64,000 nucleotides of DNA from Clostridiales bacterium (GTDB taxonomy: Bacteria > Bacillota > Clostridia > DUPQ01). Shown here in pieces: positions 6,144-45,591 of the stretch; within the stretch, counting starts at the first letter, position 1; the number at the start of each line of letters is the position of its first letter. The notes beneath the pieces were generated by a model. It did no database searches. It was not told where the DNA came from and saw only the letters and a list, made by a program, of their open reading frames with translations. A program made the translations under genes and the position numbers. The stretch lies in contig JAGLDS010000004.1 of assembly GCA_023145435.1 (NCBI GenBank), positions 40,546-104,545 on the forward strand, written 5' to 3'.

Positions 6144-6683
6144 TTATTTTATTGGCTCCATTTTATTTTCTAAATAATTTTTCATTAAATCATTTGACAT
6201 TATTATTGCTTCTTCTCTAGTAGATGCAGGTGCACATATGATAAGACCATCATCACTGCTCCAATGTATTCTGCTTAGATTACCCTCCACAGGTTCTGCA
6301 ACTGTAATTGTTACTTGCTTAAAATTTGAATCAATAAATATACTGCCAATATTATTTTGTACTGATGAATCAGTTGAGTAAAATACTAGATAACCTCCAA
6401 GTTCTGGATGAAATCGTATGTTAACTTCTCCTTCTGCAACATCTCCATTACTTTCTAACACTACATAGCCTACAAATGAGGCTTGTGTAAGAAATGCTTT
6501 TTGAAATCTTCCATCAAAGTGTAATAGAACATATTCAAAAGTTTCATCGTTCTTCTCACCTGCTTTTATTTGAACACCTAAAAAATCACGTTGAATATTT
6601 CTTGGTAAATGTATAATTAGCATAAGTAAAATAACAAATATAATAACTATACTACTTAAAATAGTTACTATTTTTTTCTTCAT
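6144..6683 (-). CDS. Membrane-anchored protein, paralog family member 2
   Basis: N-terminal TM helix. C-terminal LIICAPASTREEAIIMSNDLM aligns with the paralogs. Confidence 0.55.
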   Translation of the reverse strand: MKKKIVTILSSIVIIFVILLMLIIHLPRNIQRDFLGVQIKAGEKNDETFEYVLLHFDGRFQKAFLTQASFVGYVVLESNGDVAEGEVNIRFHPELGGYLVFYSTDSSVQNNIGSIFIDSNFKQVTITVAEPVEGNLSRIHWSSDDGLIICAPASTREEAIIMSNDLMKNYLENKMEPIK

Positions 6684-41649: not shown

Positions 41650-42420
41650 TTATTTACTTTGCACAGCTCTGTTCATGATTTGAAAAATTATATTACAAGT
41701 ATCTTCAAATAAAATGTCTTTTGCATAATCAAACTCTTTTTGGTATCTTATCCAAAAATCATGCATCCTTGTACTTTTTTTTATTTTATCCACTATATCT
41801 TTATATTGTGATAGTACAACTAAACTCCCACGTTTTTTAGTTGTTTCATACAGAGCGTTTTGTAATATATTCAAATTAATTTCTAATCTATTCAATGTAT
41901 AAATATTATATATATCATAGAAATCTCTTGGTCGAGTATTAGCAATATTTCGTGACAAGACTGTTTCAAGTTTTTCAGCTAAAATAGTTTCAAGATTATA
42001 TGCTACAATCGCAATTGAATGTTCATCAAAAAGCAATTTAAAATTATACTCAATTTCGTGTGGAGTAATTATATCACCAGTAGTAATATCAACTTTAATT
42101 GGTACCTTAAGTGGTGGATAACTAGCTATTATACTAATACGAATACCCAAATAATCATCTTTTTCTCTAATATCAGTTATATTGACAATAGAAAAAGAAA
42201 CATCATCTTCTATTTCAATTTGACATATTCTTTCAAATATTACTTTTATGGACTCATGTGTAAGTTTAATTCCTTTTATAGTAGCATCAAGATCCATTGT
42301 GGCTCTACTATCAAGCCCAACAATAGAAGCAATAAGAAATCCACCTTTAAGAATAAAGTTTTTTTTGTATTTGGAAACAGAAATCCTCTCTAACAATCTT
42401 TCCATCATGTAGTTTTGCAT
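41650..42420 (-). CDS. abiEii: AbiEii/AbiGii-family nucleotidyltransferase toxin (DUF1814)
   Basis: N-terminus FILKGGFLIASIVGLDSRATMDLDATIKG is the AbiEii NTase signature. Confidence 0.75.
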   Translation of the reverse strand: MQNYMMERLLERISVSKYKKNFILKGGFLIASIVGLDSRATMDLDATIKGIKLTHESIKVIFERICQIEIEDDVSFSIVNITDIREKDDYLGIRISIIASYPPLKVPIKVDITTGDIITPHEIEYNFKLLFDEHSIAIVAYNLETILAEKLETVLSRNIANTRPRDFYDIYNIYTLNRLEINLNILQNALYETTKKRGSLVVLSQYKDIVDKIKKSTRMHDFWIRYQKEFDYAKDILFEDTCNIIFQIMNRAVQSK

Positions 42421-42496
42421 AACAAGTTGAGCAGATATATTTTTTTCAGAGGCTTTTTCTTAATAAATGATTTTAATTGCATCGGATTTTTTGTAA

Positions 42497-43093
42497 TCAT
42501 AGAAGTATCTCCATATATGTGAGAATTTTAGGTTTTACACGAAGTTTTTCTGCATAATTCAAAATTTTCGCAATATCCTTATCCTTGCTTCTTGCGTAGA
42601 TTTTCATAGCCTGATTCACAATTTGTATATCAGCATTATGTTTAACCTTAACAATATCACAAAGGGTACGTTCAACATCGTATACTCTAATAAAATTCCC
42701 ACTAGGAGACAGAATTTTTACAACACCTAAATTATAATTTTCTAGGGTAGTAAGCTTGGCTATTACACTTTTTTTTCTGACATTACCTGTATTGTAACCG
42801 TTTGGAAAAGTCATAGTATATTTAATAGGTGTACGATCTGTAATATCATGCAAATATAAAGCCGTTTCATGGGAAAATATTCCCTTTGAAAAGCGGTATT
42901 GTAAAAAGTATAACTCATCTTCCCACACCTCTGGCAAGACATATATACCACGGTCACTCCTATATACAGCTCCTTCTTCCTCCATTTTACTTAGATAGTG
43001 TCTTGGTATCCCTGCCTTAGTAACTTGAGTTGCAGTAATAAAGCCTTTATTTTCTTTTATGATTTTCTGAATTATCTTAATATTTTTAGTCAT
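42497..43093 (-). CDS. abiEi: AbiEi antitoxin / transcriptional regulator (type IV TA)
   Basis: N-terminal AbiEi_4-like wHTH (KGFITATQVTKAGIPRHYLSKMEEEGAVYRSDRGIYVL). Positioned immediately upstream of abiEii. Confidence 0.7.
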   Translation of the reverse strand: MTKNIKIIQKIIKENKGFITATQVTKAGIPRHYLSKMEEEGAVYRSDRGIYVLPEVWEDELYFLQYRFSKGIFSHETALYLHDITDRTPIKYTMTFPNGYNTGNVRKKSVIAKLTTLENYNLGVVKILSPSGNFIRVYDVERTLCDIVKVKHNADIQIVNQAMKIYARSKDKDIAKILNYAEKLRVKPKILTYMEILL

Positions 43094-43278: not shown

Positions 43279-43315
43279 TAACTGTAACACGATAAAGTTT
43301 ATCGTGTTACAGTTA
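43279..43315. promoter_or_regulatory. Perfect 18-bp inverted repeat (37-bp palindrome), candidate operator
   Basis: TAACTGTAACACGATAAA-g-TTTATCGTGTTACAGTTA. No flanking U-run, so it is not a classical terminator. Confidence 0.5.
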
Positions 43316-43368: not shown

Positions 43369-44013
43369 TCATTTTCTATCTGCATAATCCTTTTCAATTT
43401 TCTTTTTCCAATTAGCTCTAATTACAGGATTTTTTCTATAACTTCTTATGGTTTCCCCTACTTCTGCATAGTTTAATTTAGTTCCCCTACTATCAGCATG
43501 GTAGTTAACAGCTCTATCTCTATTAATCCCAAACTTGGCAGCTGTTGCAACAGCGTCAATATTAGCTCCTAAAAACAAGAATTCCCAATTATACTTTTCT
43601 TTTTGTCGTTCTATCATATATTTAATATTTCTATGATTATACTCTCTACTAGCATTTTCCATACCATCTGTTGTTATAACAAAAAGCACATTATCTGATT
43701 TTGCTTCATCAGCTCTATATTTTTGTGCATTACCAACTGAGTCAATAGATCTACCAATTGCATCAAGTAGCGCCGTTGAACCTCTTACAAAATAATTTTC
43801 TTTTGTTAGTGGTGATATATCTTTAATGTTTGTACGATCATGTAACAGTTCATAATGATCATCAAATAAAACTGTTGTGACTAATACTTCCCCTTCTCCA
43901 TTTCTTTGTTTTTCGATCATTGAATTGAATCCACCAATGGTATCACTTTCAAGTCCTGCCATTGATCCGCTTCTGTCTAAAATAAATACTAATTCTGTTA
44001 CTTTTGTTTTCAT
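43369..44013 (-). CDS. von Willebrand factor A (vWA) domain protein
   Basis: MIDAS DRSGSM, plus TALLDA and TDG motifs. Start refined to MKTKV (RBS GGAGGG). Confidence 0.75.
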   Translation of the reverse strand: MKTKVTELVFILDRSGSMAGLESDTIGGFNSMIEKQRNGEGEVLVTTVLFDDHYELLHDRTNIKDISPLTKENYFVRGSTALLDAIGRSIDSVGNAQKYRADEAKSDNVLFVITTDGMENASREYNHRNIKYMIERQKEKYNWEFLFLGANIDAVATAAKFGINRDRAVNYHADSRGTKLNYAEVGETIRSYRKNPVIRANWKKKIEKDYADRK

Positions 44014-44094
44014 AATGTTTCCCTCCATATATTTTATATATAGAGAATAGCATCTTATATAATCTAAATGGTCGCTTCAAAAGCGACTATTATA

Positions 44095-45117
44095 TTATAA
44101 AGTTTTCTCTTCTAAAGCATATAGGGTTTCATTTACTTCATGGATGTTAAATATTTCATTTTTTATGCAATATTCAACTATTAGATCAAATCTACTACTC
44201 CTAGATAAGATATATCCAGCAGTTTCTAATAGATCATTAGTTTCATCAAAACTTAACTGTAATGCTATTGCAAAAGCAATAGCTGTATTTTTACTTGGTT
44301 TATAAAATTTATTACTACGAATTTTAGAAAATAGTTTACGATCTTTATTAGCTCTTTTATATGTTTTAACATCATCCATTTCTTTTTCATCTATAAGTCG
44401 TAATAACCGCTCAGAAAATGTATCTTCTAGTTGTTCAACTACATCCTCTATGTTCCTTTTACTACGAGCCAATAGAATTTCAGTTATATCTTTTTTAGAT
44501 CTTCTAATTTCTTCACTATATTCTTTTTTCTCTTCATGTATATCTATATTAAGCATTTGCTTATACATTGCTTTAGATTCTTTTTCTTCAATATAATTAT
44601 CATCAATATATTTAGTTACTGAATTATATAACTTTTCGCTAATAACAAAAGAATCGCTATCATAAACTACTAAATAAACCATCATGTCATGATTTAGTAA
44701 ATAATCACCAATAGCTGATGTGGCAGCTTTTAATGCTTTATCTTTAGGGTAGCCAAATATTCCAGATGATATAAGGGGAAAAGCAATTGATTGCAAATGG
44801 TTTTTCTCTGCAAGTAACAATGAATTAGTATAGCAATTTGATAAAAGTTGTAATTCATTATTATTCCCACCATACCATACTGGACCTACAGTATGAATAA
44901 TATGTTTAGCAGGTAGTCTATATCCTCTTGTTATAACAGCTTGTCCCACTTCACAATAACCAATACCATTACATTCTACTTGTAAGTCATGTTCTCCTGC
45001 ACTATTAAAAATAGCACCGCAAACACCACCTCCCATTTGAAGTTCATTATTAGCTGCATTTACAATAGCATCAACATTTAACTTAGTAATATCATTTCTA
45101 ATGATTCCTAGTGGCAT
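44095..45117 (-). CDS. Macro-domain protein (ADP-ribose-processing) with ~165-aa C-terminal helical extension (DarG-like architecture)
   Basis: NAANNELQMGGGVCGAIF, HTVGPVW and IAFPLISSGIFGYP macro motifs within aa 1-175. Confidence 0.75.
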   Translation of the reverse strand: MPLGIIRNDITKLNVDAIVNAANNELQMGGGVCGAIFNSAGEHDLQVECNGIGYCEVGQAVITRGYRLPAKHIIHTVGPVWYGGNNNELQLLSNCYTNSLLLAEKNHLQSIAFPLISSGIFGYPKDKALKAATSAIGDYLLNHDMMVYLVVYDSDSFVISEKLYNSVTKYIDDNYIEEKESKAMYKQMLNIDIHEEKKEYSEEIRRSKKDITEILLARSKRNIEDVVEQLEDTFSERLLRLIDEKEMDDVKTYKRANKDRKLFSKIRSNKFYKPSKNTAIAFAIALQLSFDETNDLLETAGYILSRSSRFDLIVEYCIKNEIFNIHEVNETLYALEEKTL

Positions 45118-45234
45118 TTTTTTACTATCCTTTCATCTACCATTCTATCACATCCACTGTTCCAGTAAATGCCCATAACTTATGTATATTATTTTTTCTA
45201 AAATTACAATATAATATATCTATAAAATTTAAGG

Positions 45235-45591
45235 ATGTGTCAAATGGATAAAGTAACTATTTATACTTCAGCAGGTTGTGGTTATTGCCAACAGGCAAAA
45301 ATATACTTTAAAAATAACAATATAGCTTTTGTTGAGAAAAAAGCAGATGTAGATTCTATAGCTAGAAATGAATTAGCAGGTTATGGTGCTACTGGTGTTC
45401 CATTAATTATTGTAAATGGTGAAGTTATAAAAGGATTTAACAAAGCACGGCTTGATGTTTTATTAAAAAAACCAATTATTCAATGCCCTAACTGTAGAGC
45501 ATCATTACGTATACCTAAAAACAAAAATATTATTATAGTTACATGTTCTAAATGTAAAAACAAGTTTAAAGTAGATACAAATAAATTATAG
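45235..45591 (+). CDS. Glutaredoxin/NrdH-like thioredoxin-fold protein fused to C-terminal zinc ribbon
   Basis: CGYC active site, then CPNC...CSKC. Confidence 0.6.
   Translation: MCQMDKVTIYTSAGCGYCQQAKIYFKNNNIAFVEKKADVDSIARNELAGYGATGVPLIIVNGEVIKGFNKARLDVLLKKPIIQCPNCRASLRIPKNKNIIIVTCSKCKNKFKVDTNKL

Follow-up and report, generated by a model that had tools for sequence, protein, structure and literature searches.

The window analysed here is a stretch of 64,000 nt (64 kb) of contig JAGLDS010000004.1 from a Clostridiales bacterium. On its minus strand lies a gene encoding a protein with an N-terminal macro domain and a C-terminal helix-turn-helix (HTH) domain, here called macro-HTH, followed by a gene encoding a small cytosolic protein that resembles von Willebrand factor A (vWA) domains with a metal ion-dependent adhesion site (MIDAS). 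A candidate operator and the vWA promoter are located between the two genes (Table 1). We suggest that the macro-HTH protein is probably a one-component transcription factor, consisting of a macro sensor domain and an XRE-type HTH, that gates an insulated promoter dedicated to the vWA gene. The domain folds, the synteny, the geometry of operator and promoter, the co-variation of recognition helix and operator, and the insulation are the comparative evidence on which this proposal is based, while the ligand, the sign of regulation and the function of the effector are inferred.

The macro-HTH and vWA proteins

The macro domain matches Pfam Macro (E=2e-40, residues 19-131), and its nearest solved relatives are E. 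coli YmdB, human MacroD1/2 and PARP14 macro1; hydrolases of the YmdB/MacroD type are the best relatives by sequence, with E-values of about 1e-39 to 1e-52. An AF2 model, made from a 63-sequence alignment, has a confident macro fold at residues 1-175, pLDDT below 50 at residues 178-221 and a confident helical domain at residues 223-340. The initial annotation described a macro domain followed by a helical extension of about 165 aa. The macro domain is found at the residues it gave, and the extension divides in the model into a linker of roughly 45 aa and a helical domain of roughly 120 aa. More than 8000 full-length relatives of the macro-HTH protein, at about 60% identity, were found.

The motifs NAAN, GGG and SSGI[FY]GYP are intact, as judged from an alignment with YmdB and from the columns of the family. 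The catalytic residues of YmdB are Asp35 and His39 (PMC8120803). In the macro-HTH protein C33 and F37 stand in their place, each kept in at least 90% of the family. The best score against the NCBIfam models of the YmdB type is 159.6 bits, and misses the equivalog cut-off of 271 bits by far. Because the motifs for binding of ADP-ribose (ADPr) are intact while the catalytic Asp and His are replaced, the domain would appear to chiefly read ADP-ribose or a derivative thereof.

The macro domain also contains four conserved cysteines (C33, C49, C55 and C95), which, with the small thioredoxin-fold proteins encoded near the module, make an input by thiol or redox state conceivable. The helix after the macro domain bears an invariant acidic motif, I171-D172-D173-x-Y175, with the consensus YIDDNYVEE (residues 154-176, window positions about 44590-44658). 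Several variants without a macro domain have a motif resembling it ahead of the linker and HTH, and residues 166-340 align with PHROG 4031. This motif could be a MIDAS ligand that lets the vWA protein feed back on the factor.

The model of the C-terminal domain (pLDDT 90) matches C.AhdI, C.Esp1396I, 434 Cro and DdrO in Foldseek, with probability 1.0, TM-scores (target) of 0.7-0.8, an rmsd of about 2 Å over 60-70 residues and E-values of 0.1-0.5. The C-terminal 181 aa gave no Pfam HTH match even at E<=10, and a profile of the domain gave no match in a sequence search of the PDB at E<=10. According to its predicted structure the domain is an XRE/Cro-type HTH of five helices and not a DarT-binding domain, so the comparison with the C-domain of DarG that the initial annotation had in mind came out differently. 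The HTH module is found in at least 7600 representatives at 50% identity. Several of the representatives that appeared to lack a macro domain were rejected as chimeras with translations of Nextera adapters, and a 549 aa apparent macro-vWA fusion (P0004) was rejected as an assembly duplication.

The longest open reading frame (ORF) of the vWA gene spans 43369-44028 (219 aa) and begins 66 nt past the stop codon of the macro-HTH gene. The second ATG, at 44013, is the likely start codon, because GGAGG is found 8 nt upstream of it and the N-termini of homologues agree with it. A co-oriented gene 66 nt downstream, with a MIDAS, had been described before; the stated length of 215 aa probably has to be corrected to 214 aa. 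The MIDAS residues D13-x-S15-x-S17, T80 and D116 are invariant in the family, which has a mean column identity of 72%. The VWA families are the only Pfam families matched, all below threshold (E=0.027 for the protein in the window, E=1.5e-4 for the best in the family), and 10 of 56 relatives match VWA at E<=0.01. A sequence search of the PDB with the vWA profile gave no match, and NCBIfam models assigned the protein to no equivalog family.

Relatives of the vWA protein number more than 8000, as do the clusters for each of the two proteins. Some sources name them VWA or YegL, and JGI uses 'YegL'. E. coli YegL is hit by BLASTP with E=0.019 and by hhalign with a probability of 29%; the MIDAS motifs align, and the similarity is marginal. 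The protein matches phrog_7371 (E=1e-58), which has no assigned function, and relatives with 37-42% identity occur in 219 phage records. In the jumbo phage XacN1 of Xanthomonas (locus L089, 2193-4124) a WGR-PARP gene lies 10 nt upstream of a vWA homologue with 41% identity. The adjacency was not seen in three further phages that carry PARP; this independent link of the vWA family to ADP-ribosylation is anecdotal and comes from a single lineage.

To describe the distribution of the pair, one genome per species was scanned with the macro-HTH alignment, which gave at least 600 matches, and 80 loci were kept. A vWA gene is found downstream and in the same orientation in 71 of them. In four of the other nine the downstream sequence is too short for evaluation, which gives 71 of 76 evaluable loci (93%). 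In 56 loci the vWA gene directly adjoins the macro-HTH gene, with gaps of 83-275 nt, and in 15 loci one or more genes are inserted. The hosts belong to Clostridia, Bacilli, Negativicutes and Tissierellia, together with one metagenome-assembled genome (MAG) of Spirochaetia; carriers include Coprococcus comes, Acetobacterium, Lysinibacillus composti and Planococcus glaciei. Clustering of the neighbouring ORFs gave the macro-HTH and vWA genes as the only conserved genes. The combination of macro and vWA was not recognised as any known system in the initial annotation, and this impression holds: the pair is conserved, and we found no description of a macro and vWA/HTH combination, or of a transcription factor with a macro domain, in the searchable literature. 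The concern that the two genes might not be syntenic elsewhere is removed by the same counts. Together, the macro-HTH and vWA genes make up a bacterial module that is widespread and so far undescribed.

Candidate operator, promoter and leader of the vWA gene

The region between the macro-HTH and vWA genes contains a palindrome with the family consensus GTCG[CT]-N7-[GA]CGAC. The form GTCGC-N7-GCGAC has a single copy in the window, where none is expected. Among 70 loci that contain a vWA gene, 69 have the palindrome once, about 72-100 nt before the vWA ATG, and the remaining one has a mutated form with a degenerate left half-site. In the 15 loci with inserted genes the palindrome stays with the vWA gene and not with the macro-HTH gene, and it is missing in all five loci without a vWA gene. 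No variation is seen in the outer 5 bp, whereas the spacer is variable.

The sequence TAnnnT is located exactly 21 nt past the palindrome in 70 of 71 loci, and any other offset is found in at most 10 of 71. The hexamers at this distance are mostly TATCCT (30), TATAAT (13) and TATTCT (10), and 39 of the 71 loci have the TGn of an extended -10 box. The canonical -35 position agrees with TTGACA at 1.33 of 6 positions, against 2.49 of 6 in the background, which means that there is no -35 box. With this spacing, and with no -35 box, the palindrome would span about -50 to -34 with its centre at -42. A centre at -42 is the position of class II activators, and lambda cI at OR2/PRM and the controller (C) proteins bind likewise. 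As the palindrome, centred at -42 and with no -35 box in the promoter, matches this geometry, we lean slightly towards activation rather than repression of vWA transcription by the factor.

The strongest available evidence that the HTH reads the predicted operator is the co-variation of the recognition helix with the half-site. A search of IMG/VR from the vWA side gave 79 loci. The macro-HTH gene and the palindrome are found in 34 of these, the vWA gene without HTH gene or palindrome in 29, and a divergent HTH in seven. The other nine are partial or unresolved: five have an operator and no HTH gene in the available sequence (two of these have less than 2.1 kb of sequence upstream), three have an HTH match without a macro match, and one runs into the end of its contig. 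In the loci with a divergent HTH, S[RK]Q replaces DR[KR] at the start of the recognition helix, and the promoter-proximal half-site is TTGAC and not GCGAC, at an unchanged distance of 21 nt to TAnnnT. Helices with DR[KR] go together with GCGAC in about 110 cases, and those with S[RK]Q go together with TTGAC in six of six, from three lineages. A change from Lys to Gln alongside one from G:C to A:T is chemically sensible.

Some proteins with the HTH module have other N-terminal parts, and these are real variants despite the many chimeras. A CYTH-HTH gene (locus L085) is followed by a 102 aa ORF, an ArsC-like gene, the operator, TAGAAT 21 nt further on, and the vWA gene. A protein with a degenerate macro domain and the HTH (L084) still has the operator and the vWA gene, and one with a double HTH (L086) has neither. 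The constant core of the system is the HTH, the operator and the vWA gene, and the N-terminal nucleotide-binding domain can be exchanged, a trait of one-component regulators.

The leader of the vWA gene has three types with distinct sequences and the same outcome. In type A the -10 box TATCCT doubles as an anti-Shine-Dalgarno (anti-SD) sequence. In type B the -10 box is in the 5' arm of a hairpin, and this hairpin is followed by a U-tract just ahead of the Shine-Dalgarno (SD) sequence. In type C an anti-SD (CCTCTCTTT) lies past the operator and ahead of the -10 box. With each type, the inhibitory structure is possible only in RNA that begins upstream of the vWA promoter. By computation, the SD in the window is unpaired with a probability of 0.01 in the read-through RNA and of 0.78 in RNA from the predicted own promoter. 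The means for 70 loci are 0.14 and 0.71, with the same direction in 70 of 70, and shuffling of the upstream segment raises the value for read-through RNA from 0.14 to 0.32 (p=9e-9). Since the insulating structures are confined to read-through RNA, only transcripts from the regulated promoter of the vWA gene seem to yield the protein.

In a Ruminiclostridium MAG (L004, 11008-11390) the operator and leader are intact and the vWA gene is internally deleted, with residues of about 125-214 left and an early stop. This is a decayed copy of the effector.

Table 1. Positions of the macro-HTH and vWA genes, their regulatory features and the adjoining genes in the window
Feature	Position (nt)	Strand	Size or residues	Basis or remark
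macro-HTH gene	44095-45117	minus	340 aa	
Macro domain	44593-45117	minus	aa 1-175	Pfam Macro and AF2
Linker of the macro-HTH protein	44455-44592	minus	aa 176-221	disordered in the AF2 model
XRE-type HTH and two additional helices	44098-44454	minus	aa 222-340	AF2 and Foldseek
Recognition helix DRKLFSKIR			aa 259-267	in the macro-HTH protein
Candidate promoter of the macro-HTH gene	45142-45169	minus		TTTACT, 16-nt spacer, TG-TAGAAT; from a consensus scan alone
Candidate operator palindrome GTCGC-TTTTGAA-GCGAC	44071-44087	minus		predicted HTH dimer site, centre about -42
-10 box TATTCT of the vWA promoter	44044-44049	minus		without a -35 box
Predicted vWA transcription start	near 44037-44039	minus		about 7 nt past the -10 box
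Leader hairpin	44014-44052	minus		folding; -10/anti-SD stretch pairs with the vWA SD
vWA SD, GGAGG	44022-44026	minus		
vWA gene	43369-44013	minus	214 aa	small cytosolic vWA/MIDAS-like protein; regulated output
Perfect inverted repeat (AACTGTAACACGATAAA...)	43279-43315	minus	17 bp	between the vWA stop and abiEi; sequence and folding
AbiEi	42497-43093			directly downstream of the module
AbiEii	41650-42420			directly downstream, after abiEi

Genomic context of the module

In the window the pair is surrounded by ordinary chromosomal genes encoding ABC-F ATPases, a glutaredoxin and a peptidase, and is followed by abiEi and abiEii, whose products are strongly matched by PADLOC models. A spacer of 275 nt with its own inverted repeat parts the module from the AbiE unit; no T-run is found on either side of this repeat, and its role as a terminator is putative. 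The position beside AbiEi/AbiEii and the lack of a DarT gene, both pointed out in the initial annotation, are borne out by the ORF map. A DarT/DUF4433 gene was not found in the map of 38-50 kb, and there is no free coding space for one: the intergenic stretches left around the pair are 275 nt and 117 nt long, and the rest is occupied by assigned genes. A functional tie to AbiE is not supported. AbiE is absent from all 80 related genome loci and was seen beside the module only in the window, the spacer with its inverted repeat separates the two, and the abiEii of the window itself appears to be frameshifted.

The frameshift of abiEii appears to lie at window positions 42420-42500 (minus strand). 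An ATG that overlaps the abiEi stop (ATGA) encodes MITKNPMQLKSFIKKK, after which the frame slips in an A-run into the listed ORF (…EKNISAQLVMQNYMMERLLERI). The PADLOC alignment of the listed ORF begins only at profile position 32. The gene is either a pseudogene or contains a homopolymer sequencing error.

Other genes accompany the module in a minority of loci. An HD_4 gene (alarmone-hydrolase, RelA/SpoT-type) joins it in six of the 80 loci and in a faecal phage genome of 64 kb that contains the entire module (e.g. L071, about 6170-6600; L046, 3104-3535; L081, 9709-10302). In L071 the HD gene follows the macro-HTH gene though the vWA gene is absent. Small genes of the thioredoxin fold, ArsC/Spx-like or glutaredoxin-like, are located near the module in four of the 80 loci and in the CYTH variant (L006, 8769-9095; L040, 11024-11374; L085, 3368-3721). 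In the window a glutaredoxin-zinc-ribbon gene (45235-45591, plus strand) is found divergently upstream of the macro-HTH gene, and likewise in L006.

Genes for a Y-family polymerase and YolD are found in three of the 80 genome loci and in 16 of the 79 IMG/VR loci. Most of the IMG/VR loci with the polymerase bear a MobA/VirD2 relaxase and are thus mobilisable elements and not phages. On relaxase-bearing elements that IMG/VR labels as viral, the polymerase and the YolD-like gene sit between the macro-HTH gene and the unit of operator and vWA gene, or just after it (L099, 1417-7533; L108, 1859-5660; L003, 11838-13828; relaxases MobA/VirD2 and NikA/MobC). This hints at a context of DNA-damage tolerance on mobile elements. 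A large gene encoding a PLD nuclease and SF2 helicase (ResIII, DUF3427-type) is located beside the module in about nine loci (e.g. L083, 4387-6891; L082, 11882-15025; L036; L081, 4659-7166). Behind it in L082 come genes for NUDIX and JetA (Wadjet) proteins, and with neighbours of this kind the module is occasionally placed in a defence island.

Proposed mechanism, alternatives and known systems

We suggest the following mechanism. The macro domain would sense ADP-ribose or a relative, such as free ADPr, O-acetyl-ADPr or an ADP-ribosylated macromolecule. A flexible linker would join this sensor to the HTH, which would dimerise on GTCGC-N7-GCGAC, and the ligand signal would be relayed to DNA binding or to activation, as in NrtR with its Nudix domain. 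The factor would then switch on the vWA promoter (repression is less likely), whereas an anti-SD hairpin or a terminator would block vWA expression from read-through transcripts. The MIDAS-containing vWA protein would in this way be produced only upon the signal, and may serve in metal-dependent binding of a protein partner in a response of the stress or conflict type to ADP-ribosylation or the breakdown of NAD+. An ADP-ribose sensing module, one of the possibilities raised in the initial annotation, is the best reading in view of the intact ADPr motifs and the replaced catalytic residues.

Several observations weigh against this mechanism. Five macro-HTH genes have no vWA gene nearby. No operator was found upstream of the macro-HTH gene by k-mer counts or a palindrome regex, and many of the -10 boxes of the vWA promoter (TATCCT) are weak. 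The vWA fold is predicted from motifs and sub-threshold Pfam matches. Neither protein matches any PADLOC model (PADLOC-DB v2) at E<=0.01. Both proteins are about 60-70% identical across classes, which is unusual for immune genes in an arms race, and such high conservation argues against a rapidly evolving component of one. Finally, macro domains without the Asp, as in coronaviruses, alphaviruses and PARP14 macro1, are still hydrolases. Instead of purely sensing, the macro domain may thus act as an enzyme, with residual or full hydrolase activity.

The last point leads to an alternative that we regard as unlikely, yet as deserving serious attention, in which enzymatic activity comes first. The macro domain would be an active (de)ADP-ribosylhydrolase, the HTH would tether it to DNA or autoregulate its gene, and the vWA protein would recruit modified substrates as a co-chaperone. 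The purpose would be removal of ADPr from DNA or proteins, for example against ADP-ribosyltransferases of phage or host. This is in line with the activity of the viral-type domains that lack the Asp and with the intact state of every ADPr-binding motif, and also with the occurrence of the module in one phage and, beside the Y-family polymerase and YolD, on mobilisable elements. The PARP gene next to the vWA homologue of XacN1 also fits, as does the analogy to operons centred on an ADP-ribosylglycohydrolase (ARG) with vWA and HD genes (PMC9503650). However, other residues stand throughout the family where the closest relatives have their catalytic Asp/His dyad. The HTH, operator and vWA gene persist when a degenerate macro domain or a CYTH domain takes over, which points to a core that is regulatory and not enzymatic, and the operator geometry indicates dedicated vWA control. 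The enzymatic alternative is compatible with the sensor mechanism if the protein is bifunctional.

It is improbable that the conserved intergenic element is instead an RNA leader that controls vWA translation on a bicistronic mRNA. The palindrome would then form a first hairpin and the SD be sequestered in a second one, in response to a ligand or a protein; alternatively, the first hairpin would be the terminator of the macro-HTH gene. The palindrome can indeed fold as a GC-rich hairpin, T-runs follow it in some loci, and the SD is sequestered in read-through RNA beyond chance. Against this, the stem is invariant and the loop varies, and covariation at the inner positions of the palindrome is not significant (26 paired, 21 expected). 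This is therefore the pattern of a DNA site bound by protein and not that of an RNA hairpin. The element follows the vWA gene and not the macro-HTH gene, and its strict distance to TAnnnT amid unconserved sequence fits a promoter. The half-site alters with the recognition helix, many loci have no T-runs, and an Rfam scan of the region at E<=10 gave chance-level matches only, with no Rfam family for the element.

We give very little credence to the possibility that the macro-HTH protein is a housekeeping YmdB/MacroD orthologue placed fortuitously beside an unrelated vWA gene. Both proteins are highly conserved and encoded among ordinary chromosomal genes, as would be expected of such a protein. 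However, synteny is kept at 93% in different classes with variable flanks, the dedicated operator co-varies with the helix, the equivalog cut-offs of the YmdB type are missed by far (160 against 271 bits), and the module is also found on mobilisable elements and in phage. The least credible proposal is the DarTG-derived remnant that the initial annotation named as one possibility, here taken as a DarG-type antitoxin that lost DarT and was re-partnered with the vWA protein: the superficial likeness of an N-terminal macro domain and C-terminal helices, and the place beside the AbiE toxin-antitoxin pair, are outweighed by a C-domain of the XRE/Cro type, a macro domain nearest to YmdB and MacroD, the lack of a match to any PADLOC model including DarG at E<=0.01, the absence of DarT and of room for it, the conservation of the macro-HTH and vWA genes alone across the 80 loci, and thousands of intact, strongly conserved family members.

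Candidate biological roles of a factor that senses ADPr and controls a vWA gene are defence, counter-defence on mobile elements, and a response to ADP-ribosylation or DNA damage. We tentatively speculate that the module is an ADP-ribose alarm switch, a possibility that we hold to be clearly less than even. The factor would be the first one-component regulator with a macro domain, would sense ADPr released or attached in conflict and would turn on a silenced vWA effector, giving an inducible defence or counter-defence. Possible sources of ADPr are NADase immune effectors, ADP-ribosyltransferases of phages or toxins, and DNA ADP-ribosylation or DNA damage; the effector would bind a key protein of the cell or the invader. 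If this is true, chromosomes, mobilisable elements and some phages of Bacillota, human gut commensals among them, would carry such a switch, and its mechanism may recall that of PARP, macro readers and Ku-type vWA domains in eukaryotic DNA-damage signalling. A signal of conflict-derived ADP-ribose would add an inducible, transcription-based layer to immunity centred on NAD+ and ADPr, and would give a first function to a family of small vWA proteins found widely in large phages. MacroD-like macro domains abound in bacteria, and beyond YmdB and a few operon-linked cases their cellular roles are largely obscure. With a defined operator, promoter and single target gene, control of transcription by ADPr via a macro domain is directly testable.

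The closest analogue in working mode is NrtR, an ADP-ribose-responsive one-component factor. The sensor of NrtR is a Nudix domain and its DNA-binding domain is a winged helix, whereas macro and XRE/Cro-type domains are combined here. NrtR represses genes of NAD metabolism; the macro-HTH protein has a single vWA target, and the operator at -42 suggests activation. The best structural matches of the C-domain are the C proteins of restriction-modification systems and lambda/434 cI-Cro. As dimers these proteins occupy palindromic operators, and they activate from a site adjoining the -35 region. Unlike the macro-HTH protein they are small and stand alone, with no sensor domain, and no similarity to the C-domain was found at the sequence level (Pfam, PDB).

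YmdB and MacroD share NAAN, GGG and G-[IV]-[FY]-G-x-P with the macro domain. In place of the catalytic Asp35 and His39, Cys and Phe are found here, as is a fusion to linker and HTH. DarG shares an N-terminal macro domain followed by a C-terminal region; the macro-HTH protein differs from it in the macro subtype, in having no DarT gene beside it and in a C-domain that is an HTH. The vWA protein is similar to TerY/YegL of the TerY-P triad in being a cytosolic, MIDAS-type vWA protein of about 215 aa. The triad has a PP2C phosphatase and a kinase as partners, and neither is conserved beside the vWA gene in the 80 loci.

The closest published system logic is that of ARG-centred operons, which combine an HTH factor with a vWA chaperone and an HD phosphatase and for which a role against viral ADP-ribosylation is predicted (Iyer et al. 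2022, PMC9503650). Both systems have an ADPr-processing domain without a coupled ADP-ribosyltransferase, an HTH factor that senses, or here would sense, ADPr, a vWA protein and sometimes an HD phosphatase of the alarmone type. The published operons encode an ADP-ribosylglycohydrolase and a separate Nudix- or WYL-HTH repressor, and occur in Actinobacteria, Planctomycetes and Proteobacteria. In the module described here, which is found in Bacillota, macro and HTH are joined in one protein and the vWA protein is the only constant partner.

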